A stretch of 64,000 bases of DNA. Origin: Escherichia phage vB_EcoM_NBG1. Shown here in pieces: positions 19,892 through 42,494 of the stretch. The translations under genes and the position numbers were made by a program. Location of the stretch: the sequence record MH243438.1. One strand, given 5' to 3'. The notes under the pieces are model-generated. The model did not search any database. It was given only the letters and a program-made list of their open reading frames with translations, and was not told where the DNA came from. The first letter of the stretch is position 1. Each line of letters begins with the position of its first letter.

Positions 19892-20185
19892 TTATTTACG
19901 GAATGAAAGGAATGCTGGTGCTCGGAATGGAGTATCATCTTTAGAGTATTTAACTAATACGACCATTGGTACCTCTGTTTCTAAATGACCTGTCACTACA
20001 CCGATAAAAATTTGATCAGTGTGCTCAGGGTCACGAAAGTTTTTAAGAGGTTCCATAGCAATATGGAATGCACCTGGGAATACTCGATTCAATTCGTCAA
20101 TCACAGCTTCGTTAAAAACATCATCCGCTGGGATAGCATCTTCAACTACTAGTTCTTGACCATTAAAGCGAAGCATAGATTTCAT
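19892..20185 (-). CDS. Hypothetical early protein downstream of alt (alt.-1-like)
   Basis: 97 aa from ATG 20185 with SD GAGGAAA; early promoter at 20215-20245. Confidence 0.6.
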   Translation of the reverse strand: MKSMLRFNGQELVVEDAIPADDVFNEAVIDELNRVFPGAFHIAMEPLKNFRDPEHTDQIFIGVVTGHLETEVPMVVLVKYSKDDTPFRAPAFLSFRK

Positions 20186-20214
20186 AACGTTTTCCTCATG
20201 TTGTTGATGGGATG

Positions 20215-20245
20215 ATAGTATCACACATCCATGTGTTTGTAAACT
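20215..20245 (-). promoter_or_regulatory. T4-type early promoter
   Basis: GTTTAC -35 and TATCAT-type -10 on the - strand, followed by the conserved caacaacATGAGGAAA leader; upstream of the alt.-1-like gene. Confidence 0.6.
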
Positions 20246-22331
20246 ATCCTTGGATAAATTTAAACGGAACTGATTCTAAATCCATTAAAGATGCTAACAA
20301 TTTCAAACCTTTAGGTGCACTAGTTTTTTCTACAAATGAGGCAAAAGATACCGGCTCATCTGATTCGATTTCACCCGTCATAGCAACTACCTCGCCTGTT
20401 TCCATGAGAACATCACCATCGTAAATGACAGCTTCGTCCAACTGGTCCGAGGACATGACTTCAGCTTGAATAAATTTAAGGTTGGATTCTAAACCTGCAC
20501 CAGTGTCAGATGACGCATCTGTAATTTTATTTATCTGCAAGAGAATGCCTCTAGGCAAAATAATTTCTTGCTCATTAGGGTGATTACTCAACTGTCCCGG
20601 ATAAATCACGTTAACTTTATGGGCGCCATCAATAGCCCATCCAACGTTAACACGGATTTGTTCTGGTGCATGCATAGCTGTTCTTACTTGACTAGGAGAA
20701 ATAGTAACACCTTCGTCGTTATTGTCAATGTTAAGCTCTTTGCGAACTTCTTCAGGAGCAAGTCCAAGGGCAACGTTCTCTTTAAACCCACCGAAAATAA
20801 TAGGAGCTAGTGAAGTGGAAACATAGTTTCTGAAATAGAATACCTTATTTTTAACCATTGCTTCGTAAATAGGCATTCTGATAGACTGAGCTCTATATAA
20901 CGTTAGTCCTTCAGGTAAACGGTCTCCATTTAAAAACGCCGAATCAAGACCATCAATAGCGCGTTTAACTTCATCTTCATCCGCAACATCGTAAAAATCT
21001 GGTTTATAACGACCTAACAACATATTATTGATATCTGTATATGCAGAAGAGGCATATTCACGAATAGCTCGTTTTTCAGAAACAGAGTATTGTTTAGGGT
21101 CCCGATTCATTGTTATATTAAAGGTGCCTCTAGCCGATTCTCGGGCATAAGTATACATCACATTAGACAAGAACGCTGATTTACGTTGTTTCCAAGTTCT
21201 TTCAGATACTTCAGCTAAAACGTCGTCAGGCAGTTGGAAATTATCACGTCTAAAATCTTCAAACCATTCGTCTTTAATAGAGTCTGCAATTTCATTTGCA
21301 GCTTCAACAAAAGCAGCTAATGCTTTAACAGATGTTGTTTTTTCGGTTTTAATTTTCTTAGCAAACTTTTCTAAAGTCGGCTTAATAACACCACCATAAG
21401 AAACTTCATCAGCAAATTTAAAGGATTCATCAATACGATTATAAATCTTATTTTCGATATCAGCAACTAAAGTGCCTTTTGCTGTGGATGATGCTTGGGC
21501 TAGTACGATTTCATATGCTTCAGGAAGTAATTCGGCTGTAGCCGGGCCACTAACTTCTTTAGCAGAATTTTCGTATTTCTGGAATAACTCACCTTCTTGG
21601 CGGTCAGCTTCTAAAGATTGACTTGCTGCAATAGCACGACGAGAAATTTTAGTACGAGCAATAACAGGCTTATCTTTACGTTTTTCTTCTACAGCAGCAA
21701 TAGAACCAGCGATAGCCGTTTCTTTGGTGACCTTTTCGCCAGTCTTTTTACTCACATAAACTTCGCCAACATCAGAATCTACTTTCGTGTACAACTCTGT
21801 GTTAATGTTAGGGATGCCTTTAATATCTTCAATGTTGGCATTTTTACGAACCATCATCACATAGGTGTGTTTACCTGTGAATTGATACATTGCCGACAAT
21901 ACTTTAAAACGACCACCGGTTTTAGTAGAAACTAAACGAGCAAGAAGAGTTTGAAGCTGTTGTCCACGTCCTTTCAATTTCTTGGTAGGGAATCGGAACA
22001 GAACTGCATCCATACGAAGAGCTTTAACTTGTTCATATACTGTATTGAAAATGGTGTTGATTGCATCAATAGGAGCAGGACCAAGGCCATTTTTCAATTC
22101 AGCGAGATTACCCTTTTCAGACAGACTCATAATAACAACATGAGCGTATTTGTCGCCGAGTTTAACTTGTTTTACAGCATCGCCTTCGGAAAGGTAAGAG
22201 AATAAACGAACTACAATATTTGTATCGATATCACCAATTTTCCAGACTTGTGGAACTTTAGCTTTAGGGTTCAAATTGACGACAGGAAGACTGCCTTCAG
22301 ATTCAAACACTTCATTTAATTGTTCAGACAT
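20244..22331 (-). CDS. alt: ADP-ribosyltransferase Alt (packaged)
   Basis: 695 aa; C-terminus ...LESVPFKFIQG and internal segments (SRRAIAASQSLE, MVKNKVFYFRNYVSTSL, VNVIYPG) match remembered T4 Alt. Confidence 0.9.
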   Translation of the reverse strand: MSEQLNEVFESEGSLPVVNLNPKAKVPQVWKIGDIDTNIVVRLFSYLSEGDAVKQVKLGDKYAHVVIMSLSEKGNLAELKNGLGPAPIDAINTIFNTVYEQVKALRMDAVLFRFPTKKLKGRGQQLQTLLARLVSTKTGGRFKVLSAMYQFTGKHTYVMMVRKNANIEDIKGIPNINTELYTKVDSDVGEVYVSKKTGEKVTKETAIAGSIAAVEEKRKDKPVIARTKISRRAIAASQSLEADRQEGELFQKYENSAKEVSGPATAELLPEAYEIVLAQASSTAKGTLVADIENKIYNRIDESFKFADEVSYGGVIKPTLEKFAKKIKTEKTTSVKALAAFVEAANEIADSIKDEWFEDFRRDNFQLPDDVLAEVSERTWKQRKSAFLSNVMYTYARESARGTFNITMNRDPKQYSVSEKRAIREYASSAYTDINNMLLGRYKPDFYDVADEDEVKRAIDGLDSAFLNGDRLPEGLTLYRAQSIRMPIYEAMVKNKVFYFRNYVSTSLAPIIFGGFKENVALGLAPEEVRKELNIDNNDEGVTISPSQVRTAMHAPEQIRVNVGWAIDGAHKVNVIYPGQLSNHPNEQEIILPRGILLQINKITDASSDTGAGLESNLKFIQAEVMSSDQLDEAVIYDGDVLMETGEVVAMTGEIESDEPVSFASFVEKTSAPKGLKLLASLMDLESVPFKFIQG

Positions 22332-22365
22332 AGTGTTTTCCTTTTAGTAATAATTTATATTTATG

Positions 22366-22390
22366 CCAAAAAGAGCCCGAAGGCTCTTAA
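22366..22390 (-). terminator. Terminator-like hairpin upstream of alt
   Basis: - strand AGAGCC-TTCG-GGCTCT followed by TTTTT. Confidence 0.55.
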
Positions 22391-22575
22391 TCCACAATCG
22401 GAAGCAAAGTACGATAAACTTCAAAATTAGAGCCTTTTTCGTACTTATCGAAATTGTCCATAAAAATATGATAGGAATCGTTATTAGGAAAATCTAATAT
22501 AATCTGAGAGCAAGAGGTGGAAACATCTCCACCATCCTTCTTAGCTACAATAACTGTTTCTAAATAAGCTTTCAT
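22387..22575 (-). CDS. Hypothetical protein
   Basis: 62 aa from ATG overlapping the ligase stop (TAATG); terminator hairpin at its 3' end. Confidence 0.5.
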   Translation of the reverse strand: MKAYLETVIVAKKDGGDVSTSCSQIILDFPNNDSYHIFMDNFDKYEKGSNFEVYRTLLPIVD

Positions 22576-24068
22576 TATAAACCTGTCTGGGACCACGGTC
22601 CAAATACGTCTTCAAACGAATCCGCTTCTGTTTTATCAAAACGGAACCCTTTAATAATTGGAAGGAAAATACCTACAGTACCTTCACGGCCTTTAGAATG
22701 AACCCAACCATTACATTCACAATCAGCGATACGTCCAATTAATTTACCTTCACGAGCTTCGGTCATTAATCGTTCACGGTCTAAATCATGACGCTCGTCT
22801 AAAGGAATAAGAACCTTTACACCGTCAACTGTTTTATGAGTTGTATCTTTAAAACCTGACCCACAATCGGTTGTAATACGACGACAACGTGATACGAGTT
22901 CGACACCACCTAATTTGTTAGGGTCTTTAGAGTGTTCATAGTATCCTACAACTTCTAAAGCGATATCAATAACTTCTTTAAATTTAATTAGGTTCTTAGA
23001 GCGTTTGTTTTCCCAATATGAATCACGGTTTTTAAGAATAATACCTTCAAGACCTTGGTCAACATATTTTTTATAAACCACTTTAGCTTCGTCAAGATTA
23101 CGAACTAACTGATTTTCAATTGGCTCAATTCGCTTAAAGCCTTCAGCCATATTTTCAAGAGCAGCAAAACGAACATCGTATTTCTGACCTTTAATTTTGC
23201 CATCAGAATAGACTTCATCTAAAGGAACATAGTCCCAGGCTTGAAGAACCATACCTTCAGCTTCTTTAGGAGAAATAGTCCCTTGAAGAGATTTATTTGC
23301 TAAACCGTTTGAAGTGCTACGGTCCGCAACTTGTACTTCTTCGGATTCTTCATTATCACCAAATAAGAACGACAGGTCATTTCCTGAGCTCACAGCCTTT
23401 TTAATATCAAATGAATGGTAAACTAATTCACCGTCGATTAAAACCCCATTAGGGTGTCTTTCACGAGCTTCTTTAGTCATTTCCATTAGTTCATCCGCTA
23501 ATAGAGTAAGACCATGATATTCGTTGCCGGCACGAGAAAAGAATTGAACACCATCATCGCGAACTTCAGCGAAACAACGAGCACCATCGGCTTTTAATTG
23601 AGCAAATGCAGGCCATTTAATATTTTTAGTAATCAATTTCTCATCATATGCAGATGCTAACATCTGTGGTTGCAATTGAATAAGTCCAGGCCACACCTTA
23701 TTCGCGATAGACACTGAAGCACCTACTTCAAGGTCGCGCATCATTACACGACGAAGGACTTCTACATCATCAGGTTTACCGTCAGCGATATAACCCATGA
23801 GCTCTTTAATTGCAGCATTACCAGTGAGTTTACGAGTGGCTAATGTGAACTCAATAAAATCCAACATGTCATCTAATTCAAGAAGACCATACGCTTGAGA
23901 CCTTTCACCTGGTCCTGGCCATTTCTTAATATAATACTGGATACCACGTGCATATGTTAAACGATACACACGTTCAAGTAATTTGTTGTCCTTATTTTTC
24001 TTAAGGATTTCCTGTTTTGTTTTAGTAGAACCGATCGCAGCTATTTGGTTTAAAATATCTAAAATCAT
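22575..24068 (-). CDS. 30: ATP-dependent DNA ligase gp30
   Basis: 497 aa; MILDILNQIAAIGSTKTKQEILKKNKDNKLLERVYRLTYARGIQYYIKKW... and adenylation motif KADGAR match remembered T4 DNA ligase. Confidence 0.97.
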   Translation of the reverse strand: MILDILNQIAAIGSTKTKQEILKKNKDNKLLERVYRLTYARGIQYYIKKWPGPGERSQAYGLLELDDMLDFIEFTLATRKLTGNAAIKELMGYIADGKPDDVEVLRRVMMRDLEVGASVSIANKVWPGLIQLQPQMLASAYDEKLITKNIKWPAFAQLKADGARCFAEVRDDGVQFFSRAGNEYHGLTLLADELMEMTKEARERHPNGVLIDGELVYHSFDIKKAVSSGNDLSFLFGDNEESEEVQVADRSTSNGLANKSLQGTISPKEAEGMVLQAWDYVPLDEVYSDGKIKGQKYDVRFAALENMAEGFKRIEPIENQLVRNLDEAKVVYKKYVDQGLEGIILKNRDSYWENKRSKNLIKFKEVIDIALEVVGYYEHSKDPNKLGGVELVSRCRRITTDCGSGFKDTTHKTVDGVKVLIPLDERHDLDRERLMTEAREGKLIGRIADCECNGWVHSKGREGTVGIFLPIIKGFRFDKTEADSFEDVFGPWSQTGL

Positions 24069-24334
24069 TTGATGTCCTCGATTTTGGTTACGGTTCTATT
24101 ATAAGCCACTTCATCTAGAAGCGATTTCAGCGTTTTCTGATAAGTTGTAATCCATTTACCGAGTCCTTCAACATAGTATTCTGAAATGTAGATGAACCCT
24201 TGTTCAACACACTCTTTAAATATTTCTGTGTCTTTTACTGAACGAAACAATGGCCAGTCTCGAAAGAACATGTTAACGTGACCGTAGTCACGTGTGGTAT
24301 TTTTGCCATCTGTAATATCATGAACTACAAACAT
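24065..24334 (-). CDS. Hypothetical protein (30.1 position)
   Basis: 89 aa ORF coupled to the ligase start. Confidence 0.55.
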   Translation of the reverse strand: MFVVHDITDGKNTTRDYGHVNMFFRDWPLFRSVKDTEIFKECVEQGFIYISEYYVEGLGKWITTYQKTLKSLLDEVAYNRTVTKIEDIK

Positions 24335-24343
24335 AATTAACCC

Positions 24344-25168: not shown

Positions 25169-25632
25169 AAAGAGTCTCTTAGTAGGTTTAACACGTCAAT
25201 AAATTCATCTTCAGTTAGTATTGTATCATCTTTTGTTAGATGGCTGGCCATGCTGTGCTTCAAAATTTTTCCTTTAGAGGCTTGTAAGGCATCACGAAAC
25301 CCCTTGTTTTGGATCGCGGCTTCAAAATATGCATTTGTGTATAATTCTTTCCACGCTTCGGAGTATCTTGAAAATGGAACTCCTAACCAGAAGAGAGTCC
25401 CACGGTCCTGAGCTCTTGCGTAAGACCTTCCAGCTTGCTGTGCAGCCAATCCAGACAACCCAAATATACGTCTTTGCTGTTCAACATTTTTCACCTTACA
25501 TCCTTGGAGAAATCCTTCAAGACCTCCGAATTGAATACCATCCATAACAAAAGGCCATTGAGCAAAGTTACTTAATGCACATGACGGCCACTTGAAATTA
25601 CTTCTTATTTCTAATTCAGACATCTTTAACAC
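25165..25632 (-). CDS. Possible NADAR/YbiA-like domain protein (30.3 position)
   Basis: 155 aa; pattern LSNF...DG..F...E.F.Q..K recalls the NADAR/YbiA family; assignment is from motif memory only. Confidence 0.45.
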   Translation of the reverse strand: MLKMSELEIRSNFKWPSCALSNFAQWPFVMDGIQFGGLEGFLQGCKVKNVEQQRRIFGLSGLAAQQAGRSYARAQDRGTLFWLGVPFSRYSEAWKELYTNAYFEAAIQNKGFRDALQASKGKILKHSMASHLTKDDTILTEDEFIDVLNLLRDSL

Positions 25633-25834: not shown

Positions 25835-26021
25835 GTTTCAACCCTTTAATAGGAGATAACTCTTTACCCATACGTATGTCAGAAGTCCAATCAACCCATT
25901 GAACAGCATACGCTTCATTGATAATTCCAGCAGCGGTTTTAAATTCAGGGAGAACTTTAAAAATCACCCCAGGAATTCCAACACCTTTTAATTGGACTGT
26001 TTGTGCTATTAAAAATTTCAT
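25824..26021 (-). CDS. Hypothetical protein
   Basis: 65 aa ORF; early promoter at 26045-26077. Confidence 0.45.
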   Translation of the reverse strand: MKFLIAQTVQLKGVGIPGVIFKVLPEFKTAAGIINEAYAVQWVDWTSDIRMGKELSPIKGLKHVE

Positions 26022-26044
26022 ATTTTTCCACTTACTAAAGAAAT

Positions 26045-26077
26045 CATTATACTCTAATCCGTCCTTGGATGTAAACT
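26045..26077 (-). promoter_or_regulatory. T4-type early promoter
   Basis: GTTTAC -35 with GAGTATAATG -10 on the - strand. Confidence 0.55.
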
Positions 26078-26690
26078 ACTTAATGAAATTAATTTCTACC
26101 GGATGAACAACAGGTTGAGCAGTGATATATTGAGTAATTGCTTTCATGACTAGAGCTTCAGAACCAGGATTTTTCTCAACGAATTCACGTGCTTGGTTAT
26201 GAGCTTCAAGTTCACTTAGTAAACCACTTCGTTGACATCCACGGTCTTGAGTACCCTGTTCAGATAAAAAGGCGACGATGTATTTTTCATCGTCATACGG
26301 TTTAGACGGTTGAGCAAATGTTCCTTTACTTCCAAAAGGAGAGTTATGACGCCACATCACGCCGTGAGGAGTTTCAACCTTCGTGTATTCATGCGGTCCA
26401 TTTTTCTTAGTTTCTTTCCATGGAACTTCATGGACCTTAGGGTTAGGACATTCAATAAAATGCTCATCTAAATCGGTCGAGAATATTAAAGTAAAACAAT
26501 TACTGAATTTACCAACACCTGCCTGATAAATTTTACCTTCAGAAGTTCTAATTTCACAAACTGAGCCAGCATCAGTAACTTCTAAAACTTCAAAAGGCTC
26601 GATAAGGTCATATGAGAACATGTTTTTAAGGCGTGGAGTAATATCCCCATTTTTAAAATTCATTTTATAAAAAGTATTAACTTTAAACAT
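26076..26690 (-). CDS. Hypothetical protein
   Basis: 204 aa ORF, no recognised motif; shares short GSVCEI motif with the next ORF. Confidence 0.55.
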   Translation of the reverse strand: MFKVNTFYKMNFKNGDITPRLKNMFSYDLIEPFEVLEVTDAGSVCEIRTSEGKIYQAGVGKFSNCFTLIFSTDLDEHFIECPNPKVHEVPWKETKKNGPHEYTKVETPHGVMWRHNSPFGSKGTFAQPSKPYDDEKYIVAFLSEQGTQDRGCQRSGLLSELEAHNQAREFVEKNPGSEALVMKAITQYITAQPVVHPVEINFIK

Positions 26691-26725
26691 AATTTCCTCA
26701 ATGGGAGCCGAAGCTCCCAGTTAAA

Positions 26726-27091
26726 TTAGATATCAAATTCGTTAAGAACTACATCAAAGATTGCTTCGAGATGTTCATGTTTAGCTCGGTTACTCAGGAT
26801 ATGACGAATCCAAGTTTTAACCAGAAGTTTACGATTAACACCGTTCCAGCAAGGATGAGTACCTAAATCACGCTGACGGAAATCATCATCTAATGCAATT
26901 TTGAAGTTGGAACCTTCCATTGTGATTGAAACCGTGATGCCATTTTCAAATCGCATATAAACATAATTAGGAGTCATGCACTGCTCAATTTCACATACTG
27001 AACCATTTTTATGCTTCCACAAACAAACCATATCGATAGAACCAGCGATACCGTTAGAAACATATTTGCGTTCGAAGTTGGTGTAGTTCAT
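26726..27091 (-). CDS. Hypothetical protein
   Basis: 121 aa; early promoter at 27131-27162; shares CMTP motif with next ORF. Confidence 0.55.
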   Translation of the reverse strand: MNYTNFERKYVSNGIAGSIDMVCLWKHKNGSVCEIEQCMTPNYVYMRFENGITVSITMEGSNFKIALDDDFRQRDLGTHPCWNGVNRKLLVKTWIRHILSNRAKHEHLEAIFDVVLNEFDI

Positions 27092-27130
27092 TTTATTCTC
27101 CAGATGTTTAAGTTGTTTGTTGGTACAGGT

Positions 27131-27162
27131 CTATAATAACATAACCTGTACCAAAGTAAACT
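27131..27162 (-). promoter_or_regulatory. T4-type early promoter
   Basis: GTTTAC -35 and GTTATTATAG -10 on the - strand; upstream of the 121 aa ORF. Confidence 0.6.
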
Positions 27163-27165
27163 GTT

Positions 27166-27534
27166 TTATGCAACTTTAATCCAATTGTCTAAATTTAAAA
27201 CACCTTTGGCTTTCATTTTTTCGATCAGGTTATCTGCTGTAATGCGTCCATTTTGATACCATGTAACATCTTCAGAGTAACCAGTTTCTTCGTCAACATA
27301 TGTTTCTGAACGAATTTTACCGGTAATAATAGTTTTTAATTCGTATGTGTCACCTGTGAAAAAGTTTGCTAACACAATTTTCCAAGAGAAATCATCTGAA
27401 GGACCTTCAGGGGTCATACAACCTACGAACTCAAATTGCTCTTTGTATAACATCCACTGGAATTCTTTAATTTCGATAGCTTTATAACCGTCGTGGTCTT
27501 TACATTTGATGTATGAGTTCAGATTGATTTTCAT
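27166..27534 (-). CDS. Hypothetical protein
   Basis: 122 aa; early promoter at 27574-27605. Confidence 0.55.
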   Translation of the reverse strand: MKINLNSYIKCKDHDGYKAIEIKEFQWMLYKEQFEFVGCMTPEGPSDDFSWKIVLANFFTGDTYELKTIITGKIRSETYVDEETGYSEDVTWYQNGRITADNLIEKMKAKGVLNLDNWIKVA

Positions 27535-27573
27535 TTTATTCTCCGATTGTTTTATTGATTAGGTGGTACAAGT

Positions 27574-27605
27574 CTATAGTAACACATCCTACAGGAGAGT
27601 AAACA
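27574..27605 (-). promoter_or_regulatory. T4-type early promoter
   Basis: GTTTAC -35 and GTTACTATAG -10 on the - strand; upstream of the 122 aa ORF. Confidence 0.6.
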
Positions 27606-27634
27606 TCTTTTTTTAAACTTTTTCTGCCCTAAAC

Positions 27635-27662
27635 GCACAAAAGGGAGACCGAAGTCTCCCTA
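27635..27662 (-). terminator. Terminator after the 59 aa basic ORF
   Basis: - strand GGGAGAC-TTCG-GTCTCCC followed by TTTT. Confidence 0.7.
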
Positions 27663-27665
27663 AAA

Positions 27666-27845
27666 TTATGCAACAACCTTTCCAAAACGAGAAGCATCAT
27701 CTCGAAGAACTGCACGTGCTCTGCGCATGATCTTCTCAACGGTTTGATTAATACGAGAGTTCGACCCACGCTTGTATCCAGCGCGTTTAGAGGTACCATC
27801 AACTTTCTTTTCAACTGCTTTCTTTGCTTTAGCTTGTTTTGCCAT
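27666..27845 (-). CDS. Hypothetical small lysine/arginine-rich protein (not in ORF track)
   Basis: Hand-translated 59 aa (MAKQAKAKKAVEKKVDGTSKRAGYKRGSNSRINQTVEKIMRRARAVLRDDASRFGKVVA); SD AAGAG upstream; terminator hairpin right after stop; replaces the track's 27629-27814 ORF. Confidence 0.5.
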   Translation of the reverse strand: MAKQAKAKKAVEKKVDGTSKRAGYKRGSNSRINQTVEKIMRRARAVLRDDASRFGKVVA

Positions 27846-28008
27846 TATAAATTCTCTTTAAATGAAAATGCAGGACTTATTGACATTGCCTGCGCAAGCC
27901 CTCAACGGGAACATAGGTTTTGGATATTTAACGACAGGATAACCATAAACCCGTCATCATACCTACCATGACTTACACAGCTAACCTTTTGCTGACGCAT
28001 GATAGCAA

Positions 28009-28257
28009 TTATTTCAAAGTAATAACAAAATGACGAACTGCTTTGCGTGCTGCAGAAGCCAGAGGCTTAGCATATTTCAATTCATCTTTAGCTTCCAGTT
28101 CAGAAGCCAGAGTAGCCTGAGCAGGATTCAGGTGTTTGAAATAACGCAGGATTTCCAGTGCTTCGGCTTCAACATCAATTGACGCACCGTAGTTTTCGTG
28201 ACCGTTATTCCATGCGTTGCGTTGCAGTTCAAGAGCGTGTTGTAATTGTTTAATCAT
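28009..28257 (-). CDS. rIII: Lysis inhibition accessory protein rIII
   Basis: 82 aa; MIKQLQHALELQRNAWNNGHENYGASIDVEAEALEILRYF... matches remembered T4 rIII. Confidence 0.9.
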   Translation of the reverse strand: MIKQLQHALELQRNAWNNGHENYGASIDVEAEALEILRYFKHLNPAQATLASELEAKDELKYAKPLASAARKAVRHFVITLK

Positions 28258-28714: not shown

Positions 28715-28742
28715 CTTATTTCCTTGTTGTTTGACGATAGAT

Positions 28743-28770: not shown

Positions 28771-28771
28771 A

Positions 28772-29080: not shown

Positions 29081-29651
29081 AAAAGTTTCGAATTTGTTCC
29101 CAATTCAGAGAACGAAGATTATTACGAGAGTACTGAATTACTTCAATACCAGCTTGTTTAAGAATGTCTGCCCAATTTTCAGGAGATCTGTCATATAATT
29201 CCGCGTATACAACCTTTTTAATACCTGACTGCGTAATAGCTTTAGTGCAATCAGGACACGGAGAAAGCGTAGTATATAACGTAGCACCTTCAATAGAATT
29301 ACCTTTACGAGCTGCAAACAAAATTGCATTCAGTTCCGCATGGATTTCGTTATTGGCAGACCAGGCACTATGAGCGGCCCGATGTTCTTTAGCCAAAACA
29401 AAATTATCTGCCCGTCCAAATGCTGTAGTGCCTTCTTTATGTCCAGCAATGATGACCGGTCTTGGATTATTCTTCAACCAGCCATTTTCGGATGCATGTT
29501 CGCAACAGTTAACACCACCTGAAGGAGAGCCATTATAACCTGTAGAAATAATGCGTCCATCTTTTTCAATGACGGCACCAACTTTCCATGAACAACATTT
29601 TGATTCTTGAGAAATCAGATATGCAATCTGAAGGTATGTGCTAGCTTTCAT
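29070..29651 (-). CDS. cd: dCMP deaminase
   Basis: 193 aa; zinc motifs HAELNA and SPCPDC; matches remembered T4 Cd in length and sequence. Confidence 0.95.
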   Translation of the reverse strand: MKASTYLQIAYLISQESKCCSWKVGAVIEKDGRIISTGYNGSPSGGVNCCEHASENGWLKNNPRPVIIAGHKEGTTAFGRADNFVLAKEHRAAHSAWSANNEIHAELNAILFAARKGNSIEGATLYTTLSPCPDCTKAITQSGIKKVVYAELYDRSPENWADILKQAGIEVIQYSRNNLRSLNWEQIRNFCGE

Positions 29652-30643
29652 TATTGAACCTTATTAATATAAGTTAACAGCTCTTTAGTTTGTTCCCAAC
29701 TGATGCACGCATCGGTAACGGAAACGCCATAGGACATATTATCAGAAATTTTTTGATTTCCTTCATGTAGGAACGATTCTATCATAATTCCTTTGACCAA
29801 ATCATTAGCTGCTAAATTTTTACCAATACCAATTTGATTGCTATAATGCCCATCAGCGTTTGCATGGCTACAGTCAACCATTACATAATGATTCAGACCT
29901 ACTGCCCTTGCTTTGTTAGAAGCTTCTTGAATATCAGAAGAATGATAGTTCGGGCCGTTGGTCCCGCCACGCAATACGATATGCGTATTCTGATTACCTT
30001 CAGCTTCAACAATGCCTACAGTACCATCGACGTCCATACCCATATACCGATGAGGCCAGGCGGCACTATACATCGCGTCTGTAGCTACTTTAATAGAACC
30101 ATTGGTTGCGTTCTTGAAGCCTACGCACATCGGTAGACCTGAAGCAATTTCACGATGTGTCTGACTTTCAGTCGTACGGGCGCCAATAGCAACCCATGAG
30201 AAAATACCAGAAAGATACTTAATCGTGAACGGGTCTAATACTTCAGTTGCTAATGGAAGTCCCATACGTAGAAGTTTACGACACAATGTTCGTGCAACTA
30301 TAAGACCGTGGTTCATATCAAAACTTCCGTCAAGATATGGATCATTTACAAGACCTTTCCAACCTACGGTAGTTCGAGGCTTTTCAAAATAAACGCGCAT
30401 CACTAACAGAACATTAGGAAGACGAGTTTGAAGTTCAGCCAAACGTTTGCCGTATTCAACAGCAGCAATAGGGTCATGAATTGAACAAGGACCTACAACA
30501 ATAAGTTTGCGTGGGTCTTCACCGTTCATAATCGAATTAACTTGTTCGCGATGAGAAGCCACTTGTGATGCGTAAGCTTCCGACAAAGGAATAATCTCAG
30601 CCAGTTCTTTTGGAGAAATAAGTTTTCTGATGACAGGTAACAT
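29651..30643 (-). CDS. 3-deoxy-D-arabino-heptulosonate-7-phosphate (DAHP) synthase, class I (AroG/F/H-like)
   Basis: 330 aa; VGPCSIHD, VYFEKPRTTVGWKGL, AIGARTTESQTHRE, DCSHAN and SVTDACI line up with catalytic and metal-binding motifs of E. coli AroG/AroH as remembered; stop overlaps cd start. Confidence 0.85.
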   Translation of the reverse strand: MLPVIRKLISPKELAEIIPLSEAYASQVASHREQVNSIMNGEDPRKLIVVGPCSIHDPIAAVEYGKRLAELQTRLPNVLLVMRVYFEKPRTTVGWKGLVNDPYLDGSFDMNHGLIVARTLCRKLLRMGLPLATEVLDPFTIKYLSGIFSWVAIGARTTESQTHREIASGLPMCVGFKNATNGSIKVATDAMYSAAWPHRYMGMDVDGTVGIVEAEGNQNTHIVLRGGTNGPNYHSSDIQEASNKARAVGLNHYVMVDCSHANADGHYSNQIGIGKNLAANDLVKGIMIESFLHEGNQKISDNMSYGVSVTDACISWEQTKELLTYINKVQ

Positions 30644-30763
30644 AACAATCCTTAGGAGATATAAACAGATTCTGATTCAACAATACCTTTAACCGGATTA
30701 GACAGGCTAAGTTGGTAGTGCTCAGATTTATGACCATTCTCGATAGTAATGAGATAGCTCTCA

Positions 30764-31000
30764 TTATAGTGTTCCATATACTCGAGTTGCTTCAACAAGA
30801 CCATCACTGCCTAATTTAAGATTAGTAATTTGGTCACCATCTTTAGGATTAACGATTATGAGAAAAGAACGTGGAGATTCTTGAATAACTCGTAATGTTG
30901 CATCTTGGAAACGTTCAGACACTTTATTGATGAGTGCTTGAGCAAATTCTTTTACTTTAATCTGAAATTCGTGTACTGTAATTGGGTTTTCACTTAGCAT
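30764..31000 (-). CDS. Hypothetical protein
   Basis: 78 aa; early promoter cassette at 31027-31059. Confidence 0.5.
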   Translation of the reverse strand: MLSENPITVHEFQIKVKEFAQALINKVSERFQDATLRVIQESPRSFLIIVNPKDGDQITNLKLGSDGLVEATRVYGTL

Positions 31001-31026
31001 TTCTATTTCCTCATTTGTTGGTAGAG

Positions 31027-31059
31027 TTATAGTATCACAACTCCACCATGTTGTAAACC
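31027..31059 (-). promoter_or_regulatory. T4-type early promoter
   Basis: GTTTAC -35, GTGATACTATAA -10, then conserved ccaacaaATGAGGAAA leader. Confidence 0.6.
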
Positions 31060-32827: not shown

Positions 32828-33126
32828 TATTTTATTCCTAAGAAAATTTCAAGAATACGAATGTTATGCTCGCGCCGGTCTTTATTAATTTCAGCAACGT
32901 TTTTATTAATTGACTTACTTCTAACGTTTGAAGAAATAAATTTAATCATATGACTTTTGAGTTGTTGCAAATCCATTCCTTTTTCTTTAGCAGCTTTACG
33001 AAGAGCTTTACCTGCTTCATCTAGGGCCTTTGCTGCATCTTTGTCATAATTGTCAAGTGACATTCCACGGCAGATATCAATATACTCATCAGACCGTTTG
33101 ATGTAATTCTCTAGTAATGTTTTCAT
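32827..33126 (-). CDS. Hypothetical protein
   Basis: 99 aa; early promoter at 33154-33185. Confidence 0.5.
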
Positions 33127-33153
33127 TTAGATTTCCTCAATTATCCATAGGAG

Positions 33154-33185
33154 CATTATACTCTGCTCCTGAGAGTTTGTAAACT
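33154..33185 (-). promoter_or_regulatory. T4-type early promoter
   Basis: GTTTAC -35 and GAGTATAATG -10 on the - strand. Confidence 0.55.
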
Positions 33186-33689: not shown

Positions 33690-34042
33690 TCTGAGAGCTT
33701 CCTGAGGTCTTCTGCAAAGGAATCGAAGGACCTGTTGATTTGTTTTTCGACCAATCCTGGCTTACTTGCCACCACGTTCTTCTTCTTCGAATCCTTACGG
33801 AGCTTTTCATTTTCGGCCTTAAGTTGGTCAACTAAAACACGGTTCTTATAAGTCATTTCTTCGATTGACTGATATTGAACCTTGAAGTCGTCTAATACTT
33901 TAGCATTGTTTTTAGCAGCCTCTTTGACAGAAGCTAATTCAGTATTCAACGAATCAACTTTGTTGTTTAAGACAACTATTGTTACCGTAGAAACTAGAGC
34001 AAAAGCTGCTACTATAGCATAAATCGGATTTACTTTAAGCAT
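33686..34042 (-). CDS. pseT.3: Inner-membrane spanin (Rz analogue, T4 pseT.3-like)
   Basis: 118 aa; N-terminal transmembrane segment then coiled-coil-like region; paired with the lipoprotein. Confidence 0.75.
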   Translation of the reverse strand: MLKVNPIYAIVAAFALVSTVTIVVLNNKVDSLNTELASVKEAAKNNAKVLDDFKVQYQSIEEMTYKNRVLVDQLKAENEKLRKDSKKKNVVASKPGLVEKQINRSFDSFAEDLRKLSE

Positions 34043-34530
34043 GTTTTAATAATCTCAATGATTTCATCTCGGGATAATCCATTGATAAGAACTGTTTTAG
34101 GCCCGTCAGTTTGGATTTTGTATGATTCAAACAATACACACAACTCTTCTGCTGTATGATATGGGCTTGAGATTCCGAGACGGTTGAATTTGTCGGTAAG
34201 AGGGTCGCAAATAATATAGAATTTGATACCTGCGATATGTACGTTTGGTTGACTAATATTAATGAACACATTAGCGTCATATTTAGTCAAATTGTTTTGA
34301 AGAAATTCTACCATAGCATTAACTGCTTCTGGCATCGCTTCGCGTTTCTCTTCAGCGTATCGGGTTGAATACTCTTTTTGTTTTACTTTCTTTTTAAGAT
34401 TTTTGGCCAGTGTAACACGTAGGTCAGTAAGATAACCAACTGGACGTCCTTTCTTAAAGACTCGGATTCCGTCAGTTGTGTCTCCAAAAGCGGTTACGAC
34501 CATATCGTTAGTAATCAATTGCATATTCAT
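34030..34530 (-). CDS. alc: Alc, inhibitor of host transcription
   Basis: 167 aa from ATG 34530 (SD GGAGAA), same length as T4 Alc; N-terminus MNMQLITNDMVVTAFGDTTDGIRVFKK resembles it. Confidence 0.8.
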   Translation of the reverse strand: MNMQLITNDMVVTAFGDTTDGIRVFKKGRPVGYLTDLRVTLAKNLKKKVKQKEYSTRYAEEKREAMPEAVNAMVEFLQNNLTKYDANVFINISQPNVHIAGIKFYIICDPLTDKFNRLGISSPYHTAEELCVLFESYKIQTDGPKTVLINGLSRDEIIEIIKTCLK

Positions 34531-34558
34531 AATTTTCTCCTCGTGTTGTTGATAAAAG

Positions 34559-34591
34559 CCATAGTAACACCTTCCTTGGTGTTTGTAAACC
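34559..34591 (-). promoter_or_regulatory. T4-type early promoter upstream of alc
   Basis: GTTTAC -35, GTGTTACTATGG -10, conserved caacaacacGAGGAGAAA leader; overlaps the rnlA 3' end. Confidence 0.6.
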
Positions 34592-34592
34592 A

Positions 34593-35726
<1,134 letters not shown>

Positions 35727-35741
35727 TCAGTTAGTTTTTTT

Positions 35742-35775
35742 AAATTGTACCACAATCCTTGTGGTATGTAAACTA
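35742..35775 (-). promoter_or_regulatory. T4-type early promoter upstream of rnlA
   Basis: GTTTAC -35 on the - strand; -10 less canonical. Confidence 0.45.
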
Positions 35776-36183: not shown

Positions 36184-36209
36184 AATAAAGTGGGACCGAA
36201 GTCCCGTCC

Positions 36210-37388
36210 TTAGAAATATTTTTTGTATGAATTGATTACATTTTGGTCTACATCATTATCAATTTGTGCGACAAGATAAGAACTGATTTCAACTTCTTGT
36301 GGGGCTGCTTGAACCAAATCAGAGTTCAAATACTCACGAATCCATGGAATAGGATGACGAGTTGATACGTCTTTAAGAGGACATGGCAGACCACAACTAC
36401 GCATACGAGACACGGTAAGATAATCCACAAATTCACTTAGGATTTTAACATTTAGACCTGGAAGAGCACCATCTTTAAACAAGTGTTCAGCCCATTCTTT
36501 TTCTTGAGCGTTAACTTCCATGAAAATATCAACTGCTTCTTGTTCACACTCTTGAGCAATTTTGACCCATTCATCACCGTCTTCGCCATCTTGTAAAGCA
36601 TGAATAATATATTGAGTGCCCTTGAGGTGGAGCTGTTCATCACGAGCAATGAACTTCATAATCTTGGCATTACCTTCCATGATTTCCATATTCTTGTGGA
36701 AGTTAAAGGTGCATGCGAAAGATACATAAAAACGAATAGCTTCTAAGGCATTAATAACGTGCAAACAGAGGTAAAGAGATTTCATTAGCTCACGCTTCCA
36801 ATATGTCTCATGCTCAATAGCATCTTCAATAACGTCTTCGTCTGCATTAATTTCTTTTTGGTATTCGATATCAGCTTTAGCGTTTTCCCAATAACGAGTT
36901 TTAATCAGAACATCATCATAATAACGTCCAATGGATTCAGCACGTTTCATAATAGCTTCATCTAATACAATCTCATCAAACACCTTCGATGGATCTGTAT
37001 AAAGATTTCGCATAATATGAGTATATGAACGAGAGTGAATAGTTTCACTGAAAGTCCATGTAGCAACCCATGTATCTAATGAAGGGTCTGAAAGCAATGA
37101 CATAAGTACCGCAGATGGTGCTCTACCTTGGATAGAATCTAATAATGATTGATACTTAAGGTTGTTGGTAAAGATGTCCTGTTGGAACTGTGGAAGCTTA
37201 TTAAACTGGGCCGAATCCAACATCAAGTTTACTTCCTCGGGACGCCAAAAGAACGAGAGCTGCTTTTCGATAAGCTCTTCAAAAACTTTATGACGCTGAA
37301 TATCATACCGTGCGAGGCCAAGACCAGAACCAAAGAACATCGGTTCATTCAAAACATCGACTTGTTGTGTGTTAAAAACTGTACTCAT
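36210..37388 (-). CDS. nrdB: Ribonucleotide reductase small subunit, uninterrupted
   Basis: 392 aa from ATG 37388 (the track ORF starts at a GTG at 37400); MSTVFNTQQVDVLNEPMFFGSGLGLARYDIQRHKVFEEL... matches remembered T4 NrdB; no intron. Confidence 0.95.
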   Translation of the reverse strand: MSTVFNTQQVDVLNEPMFFGSGLGLARYDIQRHKVFEELIEKQLSFFWRPEEVNLMLDSAQFNKLPQFQQDIFTNNLKYQSLLDSIQGRAPSAVLMSLLSDPSLDTWVATWTFSETIHSRSYTHIMRNLYTDPSKVFDEIVLDEAIMKRAESIGRYYDDVLIKTRYWENAKADIEYQKEINADEDVIEDAIEHETYWKRELMKSLYLCLHVINALEAIRFYVSFACTFNFHKNMEIMEGNAKIMKFIARDEQLHLKGTQYIIHALQDGEDGDEWVKIAQECEQEAVDIFMEVNAQEKEWAEHLFKDGALPGLNVKILSEFVDYLTVSRMRSCGLPCPLKDVSTRHPIPWIREYLNSDLVQAAPQEVEISSYLVAQIDNDVDQNVINSYKKYF

Positions 37389-37442
37389 TATATTTCTCAC
37401 TTAGTTATTAACTCATCCATGAGTAAATTATAATAAAAAGTC

Positions 37443-39698: not shown

Positions 39699-39785
39699 AT
39701 ATTCCTCAGTATAGGTTGATAGACATTACTCCAAACGGGATAGTATTTATCCCGTTAATTTATTATACACTTTTAAACTGAAGCG

Positions 39786-40040
39786 TTAATTATCCTCAGC
39801 AATAATTTCTTCATATTCTTTAGGTGTCAAGACTGTGATATTGAAATAAACCAACGGTTCTTTTTCTATACCGAATCCACCACAGAATTCACGATATTCA
39901 TAAATTCGTTCGTGTGAATAGCAAATGAATCGTTCACCTTTAACTGTGATTTCACTATTCGGTGAAGGGATATCCAGTTCGGTAGGATTTTTCATTTCAA
40001 AAATTGTGGTGCCATATGAATTAATAAAACGTAAAATCAT
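39786..40040 (-). CDS. Hypothetical protein
   Basis: 84 aa ORF between td and nrdA. Confidence 0.5.
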   Translation of the reverse strand: MILRFINSYGTTIFEMKNPTELDIPSPNSEITVKGERFICYSHERIYEYREFCGGFGIEKEPLVYFNITVLTPKEYEEIIAEDN

Positions 40041-40041
40041 T

Positions 40042-40902
40042 TTATACCGCCATTTTAGCTTTGATAGCTGGATGTGATTCGTAATTTTTAAGAACGAAAT
40101 CAGAATGTGTCATTGTTCCAGTAACCCAGTCCATTTGGATTTTTGTAGGCCAATTCTCAAAATTACTAGGCCAATTAATTTCAAGAGAACATAACTCTTT
40201 AGGTTCACGTCGAAGAACTTCTTTGCATTGTTCTACATGATTGCTGTAGATATGCGTATTGCCGCCTGAGAACACTAAATCACCTGGGATAAGGTTACAC
40301 ATCTTAGCCACAATATATGTCAAGGCAGCGTACGAGGCAATGTTGAACGGCAGGCCCAAGAAAACATCTACACTGCGTTGATACCATTGTAAATCAAGAT
40401 GACCATTACGCACATTGAACTGATAGAACATATGACAAGGAGGAAGAGCCATTTGGTCAATTTCAGCTGGATTCCAGGCAGAAACAATTTGACGACGATC
40501 GGTTGGTATTTTTTTAATACGGTCGATTGTTTCAACTAATTGGTCTACACCACCAAAATCACGCCATTGCTTACCATAAATAGGACCAAGTTCACCACTA
40601 TGATATCCAAGGTCTTTTGCCTGATTTTCATAGTTGTCGTCCCAAATAGTTTTACCTTGAATAAGACTACCATGAGTACGAATACGCAAATCATTAACAT
40701 TGGTAGAACCAGACATGAACCACAGTAGTTCGGCAATACAAGCTTTCCATGCTAATTTCTTAGTTGTTACTGCAGGGAATCCTTTAGACAGATCCCAACG
40801 TAATTTAGTTCCGAACACGGCAATTGTTCCTGTGCCTGTACGGTCGTCTGTTTCATAACCATTTTCTAGGATATCATTAATCAGGTATTGGTATTGTTTC
40901 AT
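40042..40902 (-). CDS. td: Thymidylate synthase, uninterrupted
   Basis: 286 aa continuous ORF; active-site region ALPPCHMFYQFNV; same length as spliced T4 Td; no intron. Confidence 0.97.
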   Translation of the reverse strand: MKQYQYLINDILENGYETDDRTGTGTIAVFGTKLRWDLSKGFPAVTTKKLAWKACIAELLWFMSGSTNVNDLRIRTHGSLIQGKTIWDDNYENQAKDLGYHSGELGPIYGKQWRDFGGVDQLVETIDRIKKIPTDRRQIVSAWNPAEIDQMALPPCHMFYQFNVRNGHLDLQWYQRSVDVFLGLPFNIASYAALTYIVAKMCNLIPGDLVFSGGNTHIYSNHVEQCKEVLRREPKELCSLEINWPSNFENWPTKIQMDWVTGTMTHSDFVLKNYESHPAIKAKMAV

Positions 40903-41486
40903 TTATATACGCTCTCAGTAATTTCGGTGAGTTCATCGATTCTGTAGTAATGAGATTCTACCATAGAACGTTGAAGCATAATATCCTGGACGAAATCTTT
41001 ATCAAGTTGAACATCTGAATTAACACGACATTTCTTAATGATTTTAGTCATCACGATTTCATCGGCATAAGGCAGTGCTTGTTTTAATAAAGCGGGGCCA
41101 CCAATAACAGATACATCAACATGTTCAGTAGAAAGTTTAAACGGTACATCAGTTGCAGGGCTAAACAGGTTAATTTCACCGCCCATTAGCAAGGTAATAA
41201 ATTCAGATTGGGTGATATAGAACCGTGCAAGTTCATCAGTTTTAGTCCTAGGCAGTTTTCTGGCCATATCAGTGACAACCACATGAGTACGATCTGGGAG
41301 TAGACGAGGTAATGATGCAAAAGTCTTAGCACCCATAACCATTACAGTGTTTTTAGTGCGAGCAACAAAGTTACTCATATCTTGTTTGATATGCTTCCAT
41401 GGAAGTCCATCACCTAATCCAAAAGCATATTCCAGTTTATCATCAACTGTTTTAGACGGTGCGCATGCGAATACTAATTTAAGCAT
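40899..41486 (-). CDS. frd: Dihydrofolate reductase
   Basis: 195 aa from ATG 41486; MLKLVFACAPSKTVDD...AFGLGDGLPW matches remembered T4 Frd; the track ORF is extended upstream. Confidence 0.92.
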   Translation of the reverse strand: MLKLVFACAPSKTVDDKLEYAFGLGDGLPWKHIKQDMSNFVARTKNTVMVMGAKTFASLPRLLPDRTHVVVTDMARKLPRTKTDELARFYITQSEFITLLMGGEINLFSPATDVPFKLSTEHVDVSVIGGPALLKQALPYADEIVMTKIIKKCRVNSDVQLDKDFVQDIMLQRSMVESHYYRIDELTEITESVYK

Positions 41487-41727
41487 TTTTAAGTCCTTTA
41501 ATAACTTTTTGGATTTGTGATTTAGAAGAAACCAAATCAGTCTGGATTTGACAACCATCGGTAGAGTCAAATACTATAACACAAACGCGAGGTTTTGTTG
41601 TGTATCGCCCAGACAAATCAAATGCGTCACCAATGAATTCGGCCAAATCCGGATGGTCTAAATTAACTGAAGTATAAACTTCATATCCGACATCAGCGCC
41701 TTGAGAGTATTCAACAACAACATTCAT
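41479..41727 (-). CDS. Hypothetical protein (frd.1 position)
   Basis: 82 aa ORF coupled to frd. Confidence 0.5.
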   Translation of the reverse strand: MNVVVEYSQGADVGYEVYTSVNLDHPDLAEFIGDAFDLSGRYTTKPRVCVIVFDSTDGCQIQTDLVSSKSQIQKVIKGLKNA

Positions 41728-41729
41728 AA

Positions 41730-41978
41730 TTATTTCCTCAGATTTTTCTTAACAACTTTCCAATCGGCTTTGAACGATTCAACATCAGAGTGGTGAATCC
41801 AGAATCCTGCACTTTCACCATCTTCGTAGAGTGGACATCCATCACATTCTTCGTTCCAACCCATTTCACGTAAAGCTTCTTCAGCTTGTTCAAGGAGTTC
41901 AGCGTCTTTACCAACGATGTTGAAGTACCATTTACCTCTAACTTCAGAATCTTTGATGCTCTGGCGTTGTAATCTCAT
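41730..41978 (-). CDS. Hypothetical protein
   Basis: 82 aa ORF. Confidence 0.5.
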   Translation of the reverse strand: MRLQRQSIKDSEVRGKWYFNIVGKDAELLEQAEEALREMGWNEECDGCPLYEDGESAGFWIHHSDVESFKADWKVVKKNLRK

Positions 41979-42042
41979 TTTATTCTCCGCTTCACCTTTA
42001 ATTTGATAGGGCTACTATAACATAACCCTATCTGATTGTACA

Positions 42043-42435
42043 CTACTTTTTAAAAGTGTTTTGCAAAAGTTTGATGATTTCGTCGACGTTGGTTTCATCT
42101 ACGATACAATGGATTTTTGTTACACCTAAAGTTACACCTTCGTTAGTAGGTTGAGGCTTTACTAAATCTACCTCGGTAAAGTATTTGAACTCGTCAGGAT
42201 AAATCTCAAAATAAGTTTCAATTTCACCACCGGCAGAACATACAGTACCATCTTCCATAGTTACACTTACTACGTTTGACATATCGCTATCATAATCAGG
42301 TTCCATTCCGTTTACAACAAAACTAGGCCCGTGGAGTTCAATCAATTTTAACATCTTAGCGTTATTGTGTGGTGCTTCTTGAACAAAGTCATCTTTAAAT
42401 AAAGGGTTAATGATATAAGATTTTCCGATTTCCAT
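42043..42435 (-). CDS. Hypothetical protein
   Basis: 130 aa; early promoter cassette at 42461-42494. Confidence 0.55.
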   Translation of the reverse strand: MEIGKSYIINPLFKDDFVQEAPHNNAKMLKLIELHGPSFVVNGMEPDYDSDMSNVVSVTMEDGTVCSAGGEIETYFEIYPDEFKYFTEVDLVKPQPTNEGVTLGVTKIHCIVDETNVDEIIKLLQNTFKK

Positions 42436-42460
42436 TTTGATTTCCTCATGTTGTTGATAG

Positions 42461-42494
42461 GTCTATACTAACACATCCAGGGAAGAAGTAAACA
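42461..42494 (-). promoter_or_regulatory. T4-type early promoter
   Basis: GTTTAC -35, GTTAGTATAGAC -10, conserved caacaacATGAGGAAA leader; upstream of the 130 aa ORF. Confidence 0.6.

Follow-up and report, generated by a model that had tools for sequence, protein, structure and literature searches.

Promoter-early stem-loop (PeSL) cassettes are known from T4-type phages, in which crossovers have been mapped between the −10 element and the ATG (Arbiol 2010, PMC2839356). The model was extended to T4/PST and KVP40/nt-1 (Comeau 2014, PMC4122927) and already holds the idea of mobile regulatory cassettes that act as recombination joints (PMC2839356, PMC4122927). Here we analysed a 64,000-nucleotide (nt) stretch of Escherichia phage vB_EcoM_NBG1 (MH243438.1; the window), in which early genes on the − strand follow a conserved early promoter and leader. 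We estimate at about 0.75 the probability that these cassettes serve a T-even phage as compact early-gene expression units and are the counterpart, in the RB69 lineage (Mosigvirus), of PeSL cassettes. They are not a new kind of element, the PeSL type being already published.

In RB49/phi1, the PeSL stem-loops lie mostly between −35 and −10 or overlap −10, in five positional subclasses, and work on the circular excision products (mini-circles) used inverse polymerase chain reaction on infected cells (PMC2839356). The window cassettes resemble this system in joining the upstream stop, an AT-rich region, the −35 and −10 elements, a ribosome-binding site (RBS) and the start codon into one intergenic unit. 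Where they have a stem-loop, it lies between −35 and −10, overlaps −10 or stands upstream of −35, the last being the arrangement that the hairpin at 42521-42542 fits. Many same-orientation copies occur in early or variable regions, insertions and deletions (indels) of open reading frames (ORFs) are flanked by two copies, and ORF-indel junctions fall inside cassettes (ORF71, ORF245c, orf212 and the edges at 26021 and 27530). By contrast, the window promoter is of the GTTTAC type rather than the TTGACA type of PeSL cassettes, only ~40% of copies have a clear hairpin, and several indels of the same geometry are found at promoterless gene starts. The PeSL descriptions concern RB49/phi1, T4/PST and KVP40/nt-1, not RB69-like phages (PMC2839356, PMC4122927); RB69 is unmentioned in Arbiol et al. 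(PMC2839356), and our literature search gave no PeSL description for Mosigvirus.

Each cassette spans ~60–75 nt from the stop of one early gene to the start of the next. Its promoter, by consensus, is a strong sigma-70 one of the T4 early type, and an RBS follows after a very short leader that is poor in G. The hairpin around the −10, present in ~40% of cassettes, may attenuate read-through. In the mechanism that we propose, the many same-orientation copies would be substrates for homologous or short-homology recombination, which would delete, insert or swap an ORF between two translation-start regions, while gene conversion would homogenise neighbouring copies. Regulation would be the primary role, and recombination a by-product that selection tolerates because the genes stay intact. 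The comparisons below lend partial support to an occasional role of same-orientation copies in crossover, mainly at the leader/start-codon end.

This reading would bring the T-even branch of RB69 and JS98 under the PeSL model, with nucleotide-resolved examples. It would also sharpen the model, with exchanges mapping to the leader/start-codon end and the same geometry recurring at promoterless gene starts. For annotation, it would account for the long, seemingly over-conserved intergenic blocks in these phages, and for the turnover of small accessory genes without disturbance of early transcription units.

Architecture of the cassettes and their leaders

A regular-expression search and a position-weight-matrix (PWM) scan trained on RB69, which found the same window sites, gave 18–19 early promoter cassettes in the window, all on the − strand and upstream of early genes (Table 1). 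Promoters were called by sequence consensus only. The tally consists of 16 regular-expression hits, two promoters with variant −35 elements (P42043, GTGTAC; P61445, TTGTAC) and a doubtful intragenic site at 7019, so that an earlier count of 17 was about right. The site at 7019 (− strand; GTTTAC-18-TACTAT, PWM 24.6) has no RBS or ATG close downstream and apparently lies within a coding region.

The promoters consist of an A-rich upstream element, a GTTTAC −35, a 17–18-nt spacer, a GT-rich extended −10 region and a TAnnnT −10, and every cassette has an RBS (GAGG or GGAG) 5–10 nt before the ATG. The stop of the upstream gene overlaps the −35 or lies within 3 nt of it at 20244, 26076, 31058, 33184, 34590 and 35773. 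With a span of 58–73 nt from −35 to ATG across cassettes, the cassette thus takes up the whole intergenic space. Most of the remaining cassettes are preceded by A-rich tracts (aaaaagtt, aaaaca, aaaata).

These promoters share with the early promoters of T4 and RB69 the GTTTAC element, a TGn-like GT-rich stretch before the −10, an A-rich upstream element and consensus beyond the hexamers. The extended consensus of the T4 early promoters is reportedly due to Wilkens and Rüger and to Miller et al. 2003. In T4, “additional regions of consensus” have been described (Hinton 2010, PMC2988021), and the early promoters of RB69 have been predicted and mapped, giving a logo, 57 promoters, many of them upstream of novel ORFs, and a C preference at −3 to −1 (Nolan 2006, PMC1524935). 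The window cassettes match this logo in being C-rich at −3 to −1. They differ in a start-site block, ATCAAC(a/t)AC, and its fusion to the RBS, which are not spelled out in PMC2988021 or PMC1524935.

An original prediction, made from the sequence of the window, had singled out four − strand starts (20185, 31000, 34530 and 42435) that share promoter elements and an extended leader with fixed spacing. These starts lie 58–63 nt downstream of a GTTTAC, with a 17–18-nt spacer and a TAnnnT −10, and the fixed spacing was confirmed, the first A of A(T/C)GAGG standing 14 nt from the start codon in all four. The motif CAACAA(N0-1)AYGAGGA occurs four times against 0.01 expected, with none of 100 shuffles reaching four, and its sites lie 22–24 nt downstream of the −10, preceding the starts of alt.-3, cd.2, alc and frd.2. 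Three of them have an exact ATGAGGAAA (20191-20199, 31006-31014 and 42441-42449), in whose place the alc leader has ACGAGGAGA. The longer ATCAACAACATGAGGAAA is identical at 18 of 18 positions between 20191-20208 and 42441-42458.

We rejected ATGAGGAAA alone as a signal, since it is only weakly enriched (4 hits versus 1.14 expected). No early promoter precedes the fourth copy (9007-9015), which falls in the start region of inh, beside a homing-endonuclease gene. This 260-amino-acid (aa) GIY-YIG/SegE-like gene (9001-9783, + strand) separates inh from uvsW, and RB69 lacks it (742 bp in the window versus 6 bp in RB69). The start of the gene overlaps the inh RBS that holds the ATGAGGAAA copy and that lies on the other strand.

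Aligned on the −10, most cassettes read TAnnnT-agacct-ATCAAc..., and the start-site consensus cctATCAAC(a/t)AC is common to many early promoters of RB69, T4 and JS98. The cctATCA(A) context is found in promoters elsewhere in the RB69 genome, in short- and long-leader cassettes alike, and the ATCAAC type also occurs in both window classes. In T4, where we reconstructed the pattern downstream of the −10 from the T4 sequence itself, there is a strongly conserved family ttttttcacaaaacNGTTTAC-N18-TACTATacaactATCAACTAC..., and JS98 has the same start context. CTATCAA is not enriched as a genome-wide motif (15 hits versus 12 expected) and is informative only at a fixed position after the −10. T4-type early promoters are used straight after infection by host RNA polymerase, unmodified or Alt-modified, with a start ~7 nt past the −10. 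The start-site block begins 6–7 nt after the −10, at the distance at which sigma-70 promoters initiate, and the A of cctATCAAC is the likely transcription start.

The second part of the leader is equally general. GAGG-8 nt-ATG is the commonest GAGG..ATG spacing in the genome (12 of 36 sites), and five of these 12 are at promoterless genes; tGAGGAAA with the 8-nt spacing also precedes promoterless genes, at 41727, 61371, 58105 and 60872. The named leader reads as the start-site consensus joined directly to the RBS context tGAGGAAA-N5-ATG, giving a minimal leader of ~22 nt. Because the two parts are butted against each other, they appear as a single long conserved block with fixed spacing.

We considered whether the upstream ATG of ATGAGG might be the start of a leader peptide or of an overlapping upstream ORF that regulates the downstream gene. 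The frame at 20199 (ATG AGG AAA ACG TTA TGA) does end on a TGA that overlaps the real ATG, and that at 31014 is ATG AGG AAA TAG. However, the alc cassette has ACG in place of ATG, and the 42449 frame stays open over more than 30 codons, reaching into frd.2 in a different reading frame. The upstream ATG moreover has no RBS before it, being only ~10 nt away from the predicted 5′ end and forming part of the RBS itself, and its TGA is the stop codon of ORF245c in RB69. Given the inconsistent frames, the ACG in alc and the missing RBS, we rejected this explanation as highly improbable.

Cassettes 27161, 27604, 58814, 59136 and 42043 form a second leader class, with GGAGAATAAAATG or GGAGAAATAAAATG at the end of the leader. 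The RegB endoribonuclease site in T4 early RBSs is GG*AGRAYARAA (Uzan and Miller 2010, PMC3014915). GGAGAATAAAATG (27161 and 27604) is a full match, and GGAGAAATAAAATG (58814 and 59136) matches except at the Y position; these RegB-like leader ends lie at 27091-27110, 27534-27553, 58746-58770 and 59066-59090. The short-leader class differs in that tGAGGAAA has no GGAG, while the alc variant GAGGAG contains one. Because it lacks GGAG, the tGAGGAAA class is predicted to escape RegB, which suggests two early mRNA classes of differing RegB sensitivity.

Hairpins around the −10 or in the spacer were found in 7 of 17 window cassettes (z −2.8 to −6.6), while about half, including 20244, have none. In the cd.2 cassette, a 13-bp hairpin (GGTGGAGTTgtgaTACTATAACTCTACC) embraces the −10 (z −5.6). 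Among the four named cassettes, that of cd.2 is the one with a hairpin at the −10, whereas frd.2 has a terminator upstream, alc a weak hairpin in the spacer and alt.-3 no hairpin; the terminator-like hairpin at 42521-42542 is also present in RB69 and JS98. At least six consecutive pairs in a common register, in which position i pairs with 1−i counted from the first −10 base, were found in 14 of 62 unique cassettes from the window, RB69 and T4, compared with 1.8 in shuffles and 0–1 in shifted registers. Several pair types occur per position, that is, compensatory changes. The hairpins of P33184 (AGGAGC/GCTCCT), the ndd cassette and RB69 72055 (both GAGAGC/GCTCTC) and T4 7215 (GGGACC/GGTCCC) are compensatory variants of one design.

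Gene content at the cassettes

We compared gene content by colinear blastn chains, covering 15–48 kb against eight relatives and 55–64 kb against four. The clearest case is ORF71 (58853-59068), which lies between two motA-type cassettes, copy A (59060-59150) and copy B (58733-58823), that share a 36-nt identical core and 22 identical nt through ATGTCTAAA. RB69, p000v, HY126 and WFK have no ORF71 and carry one hybrid cassette, with the upstream part of copy A and the leader of copy B. ORF71 is present in ~75 Mosigvirus and ~17 Dhakavirus records. JS98 has the same arrangement, its two copies being identical over 41 nt. The JS98 copies share TACTAT and gctttaaac, and the window copies both share TATTAT and gcttcaaac; such lineage-specific bases in both flanking copies are the pattern expected from gene conversion.

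At frd.2, RB69 has ORF245c between the frd.2 promoter and frd.2, flanked by ATCAACAAATGAGAGGAAA and ATCAACAAATGAGGAAA. These flanks are repeated ATCAACAAATGAG(A)GGAAA leaders, and the alignments overlap by 26 bp at 42433-42458. ORF245c was found in only ~9 Mosigvirus genomes. T4 carries an unrelated gene, frd.3 (27576-27803), between 32 and frd.2, where RB69 has ORF245c; the RB69 homologue of frd.3 (22055-22282 of the sequence compared) lies between e.6 and ORF145c, at 72 kb, behind another cassette.

JS98 has an extra gene, orf212, at the point where the cd.2 leader would meet the cd.2 start codon, and the same leader, aacaaATGAGGAAAtcgaaATG, drives it. A 204-aa ORF with its cassette P26076 replaces 30.6 of RB69, NHEP10, AV115 and T4, with homology breaking at 26021, the ATG, and at 26684, 6 nt inside the ORF. 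In AV115, the end of the replacement is at 27530, 4 nt into 30.8; this edge and that at 26021 each lie at the 3′ edge of a cassette. The alt/alt.-3 junction also varies, with alt.-1 and alt.-2 in T4 and a second alt gene in JS98. The two full-length alt genes of JS98 are in tandem (JS98 1-3213), and Mosigvirus is without the second alt or alt.-1/alt.-2; the T4 alt.-1 and alt.-2 are short ORFs at the place of the JS98 tandem alt, annotated as an old partial alt duplication.

Similarity among cassettes and rival explanations

Similarity beyond the consensus was measured against 500 column shuffles among cassettes, which keep the consensus and destroy families. All three sets, of 15 window cassettes, 47 unique Mosigvirus cassettes and 37 T4 cassettes, had over-dispersed pairwise identities, and in no set did any of the 500 shuffles match the spread or the top pairs. 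With the 17 spacer columns alone, the result was 0 of 500 for Mosigvirus and T4 and 2 of 500 for the window. The alignment of the early promoter regions thus bears out, for the population, a similarity beyond the consensus-only null (0 of 500).

The four named cassettes behave differently. Compared with random window quadruples, the fractions at least as similar were 0.96 for the upstream 15 nt, 0.21 for the spacer and 0.51 for the 12 nt after the −10; the one low fraction, 0.02, came from the 12 nt that precede the ATG, by which the four had been picked. We therefore rejected the four as one recent family, the upstream, spacer and post −10 blocks being no closer than in random quadruples. The truly close pairs are 59136/58814, 27604/27161, 62218/61706 and 33184 with the ndd cassette. 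Conservation beyond promoter need was not supported for the four named cassettes, whose leaders consist of generic start-site and RBS parts; for the cassette population, the excess similarity holds.

Cassettes at non-orthologous loci can be nearly identical. In T4, P(alt.-3) (4033-4110) and P(alc) (17276-17340), 13 kb apart, are identical over ~55 nt with one mismatch (GTTTACAAGTCCCTCGTGTTGTGTTATAGTAGTCTTACTrACATAACATGAGGA), whereas their Mosigvirus orthologues, from which both differ, have only the leader in common. The window motA cassette resembles Mosigvirus cassettes (59136; RB69 55004 and 145999) and not T4 motA (local scores 55 and 53 versus 17). A comparison of the best paralogue with the single T4 orthologue, won by the paralogue at 21 of 27 loci, was judged biased (the maximum over ~38 against one comparison); in its stead we compared how often pairs are highly similar inside one genome and across genomes. 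Non-orthologous pairs at least 65% identical in non-hexamer columns make up 2.0% within RB69, 3.5% within T4 and 0.84% between them, that is, they are 2.4–4 times commoner within a genome than between RB69 and T4. The excess may reflect some within-genome homogenisation or lineage-specific functional optima, and favours homogenisation.

Several observations weigh against reading the cassettes as recombination joints. Outside the block before the ATG, the named four are no closer than random quadruples, so they are neither a set of recent copies of a single element nor a special mobile family. The over-dispersion in leader columns could partly reflect mixed leader-length or RBS classes rather than common descent, and two diagnostic positions underlie the argument for concerted evolution of the cassettes beside ORF71. 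Gene content next to the alc cassette is unchanged in RB69, T4 and JS98, its neighbours being constant in four genera-level comparisons. Among close relatives, most large indels, including most of those in 20–43 kb, are group I introns or homing-endonuclease genes rather than cassettes, namely the nrdB and td introns, endonucleases next to nrdA and between 59 and 33, and the GIY-YIG gene at 9001-9783. Some ORF indels lie at promoterless gene starts, namely DAHP synthase (29654/30764) and ORF82 (41490/41730). Both insertion sites are promoterless, with the DAHP synthase block placed between TAATGAGAGCT and TAATGAAAGCT (30764 and 29651) and ORF82 between the RBS and ATG of frd (41730 and 41490). 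In a hand count, ~5 of 14 distinct breakpoints were inside cassettes and ~1/4 of gene junctions carry a cassette. This share is far above the random-position expectation but, with few events in the hand count, not significantly enriched against a gene-start null.

Relative to RB69, the insertion at 29651-30764 (− strand) consists of DAHP synthase (PF00793, E 5e-75) and a 55-aa ORF between cd.2 and cd, with the near-repeat TAATGA(G/A)AGCT at the two start codons that delimit it.

The proposal of mobile regulatory cassettes acting as recombination joints therefore survives in part. The excess similarity of the population and three ORF indels on cassettes (ORF71, ORF245c and orf212, where gene content does change exactly at the cassette) speak for it; the ordinary character of the named four, the unchanged surroundings of alc and the indels at promoterless starts do not. 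A possible, though less probable, variant is that the effective joint is the translation-start region (start-site block, RBS, ATG and first codons) rather than the promoter or stem-loop. Accessory genes would then move from start codon to start codon, with a promoter or with none, and the cassettes of each genome would undergo concerted evolution by gene conversion, as in the pairs flanking ORF71 in the window and JS98 and in T4 alt.-3/alc. The TGA in aTGAgg, which serves as the ORF245c stop in RB69, would be a ready-made stop for any ORF that arrives upstream. In the comparisons made, 13 of ~15 ORF-level indel boundaries are within 10 nt of a start codon.

Some of the same evidence would fit pure functional convergence, in which the cassettes are independent versions of one promoter, start-site and RBS optimum with no special recombination role, and indels survive wherever genes stay intact. 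Such convergence is in keeping with a leader that decomposes into generic start-site and RBS consensus, with named cassettes that are not unusually alike elsewhere, with promoterless gene starts that serve as indel junctions too and with the missing enrichment against the gene-start null in the hand count. It is nevertheless unlikely, as the spacer-only columns, which have no known consensus requirement, are over-dispersed as well, and near-identical non-orthologous cassettes exist (T4 alt.-3/alc; window 59136/58814). Nor does it sit well with the hybrid single cassette exactly where ORF71 is missing or with the 26-bp repeated leader that flanks the ORF245c insertion. A dedicated site-specific enzyme, a recombinase or homing-type nuclease that targets the leader and moves the cassettes, seems more far-fetched still. 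Arbiol et al. left site-specific recombination open (PMC2839356), and the junctions do lie at a narrow position between leader and ATG; yet the cassettes have no associated recombinase, the window carries its homing-endonuclease insertions elsewhere, and junctions of the same geometry occur at promoterless starts without the motif. The junction repeats, moreover, vary from ~10 to ~90 nt, as expected for homology-driven exchange.

Gene map and neighbouring features

The window comes from a Mosigvirus, a T-even phage of the RB69 type, and has ~97% identity to G2469 and APCEc01. A megablast search with 20000-43000 gave 146 phage records with at least 80% query cover, the top matches being Mosigvirus G2469, APCEc01, JS09 and ST0 at 96–97.5% identity. 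The − strand genes were named from the annotation of APCEc01, RB69 and T4 (Table 1). Protein family searches with ORF204, ORF71 and ORF82 gave only PHROGs of unknown function.

Table 1. Early promoter cassettes, genes and associated elements in the window
Feature	Coordinates	Strand	Remarks
Early promoter cassette	4113-4175	−	Leader ATCAACTACAGAGGAG
alt.-3	19892-20185	−	Then alt, 30, 30.1-30.5
alt.-3 cassette	20183-20244	−	alt TAG overlaps −35 (taGTTTAC); spacer 18; TACTAT; leader catcccATCAACAACATGAGGAAAacgttATG, motif 20191-20208; no hairpin, z 0.16
30.5-like gene cassette	26019-26076	−	Homology breaks exactly at ATG, 26021
Variable 204-aa ORF	26076-26690	−	Then 30.7, 30.8, 30.9, rIII, 31, 31.1, cd
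30.7 cassette	27089-27161	−	Long leader ending cTGGAGAATAAAATG; hairpin GGTACAGGT..ACCTGTACC embraces −10, z −4.4
30.8 cassette	27532-27604	−	Long leader ending cGGAGAATAAAATG
DAHP synthase	29651-30643	−	
cd.2	30764-31000	−	Then cd.3, pseT, ORF230/231, pseT.1-3
cd.2 cassette	30998-31058	−	cd.3 stop TAAtg directly before GTTTAC; leader ACCAACAAATGAGGAAAtagaaATG
ORF231 cassette	33124-33184	−	Hairpin AGGAGC..GCTCCT around TATAAT, z −3.0; paralogue of ndd cassette
alc	34030-34530	−	Then rnlA, denA, nrdB, nrdA, td, frd, frd.1
alc cassette	34528-34590	−	rnlA stop TAAtg directly before GTTTAC; leader ATCAACAACACGAGGAGAAAattATG; weak spacer hairpin, z −1.6
rnlA cassette	35715-35773	−	denA TAG overlaps −35; spacer hairpin CCACAA..TTGTGG, z −2.8
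frd.1 cassette	41976-42043	−	Variant −35 GTGTAC; 11-bp hairpin embraces TATAGT, z −6.6
frd.2	42043-42435	−	Then 32, 59, 33, dsbA, rnh
frd.2 cassette	42433-42493	−	Leader ATCAACAACATGAGGAAAtcaaaATG, motif 42441-42458
Terminator-like hairpin gggagacttcggtctccc + TTTT	42521-42542	−	3′ of gene 32; 27 nt upstream of frd.2 cassette −35
rnh cassette	45724-45788	−	
asiA-like gene cassette	56237-56303	−	Upstream of gene named from RB69 and p000v annotation
motA cassette, copy B of direct repeat	58733-58823	−	
ORF71 (phrog_6200, function unknown)	58853-59068	−	Polymorphic; then stem-loop gggcttttggaaaaagagccc
motA-type cassette, copy A	59060-59150	−	Drives ORF71
ndd cassette	61369-61445	−	Variant −35 TTGTAC; hairpin GAGAGC..GCTCTC around TATAAT
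ndd.1-like gene cassette	61646-61706	−	Hairpin around TATAGT, z −3.2; leader catgaggaacacaaaATG = T4 alt.-3 leader
Early promoter cassette	62160-62218	−	Hairpin GTAGGACTAT..GTAGTCCTAT around TATAGT, z −3.5; 83% over 54 nt with paralogue 61706

The window has no group I intron in nrdB at 36703-36710 and none in td at 40353-40355; G2469, NRG-P0074, KAW3E185 and AV115 carry these introns (~1.08 and 1.02 kb), each with an endonuclease ORF. Just 3′ of the rIII stop, at 28005-28019, six of the eight relatives compared have 100–135 bp of extra DNA, and the chain is unbroken in AV115 and NHEP10. The extra DNA of APCEc01 ends ...gTACTATcacgcgtcag, and its window counterpart is tgCTATCAtgcgtcag, so a −10-like element may be lost in the window. 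On the − strand 5′ of nrdA, the spacer at 39699-39793 holds a MotA-box-like middle promoter (cGCTTca-N11-TATAAT) with the hairpin acgggata..tatcccgt, followed by ctatcaacc, and is the exact site of a homing-endonuclease gene or a 300-bp ORF in relatives.

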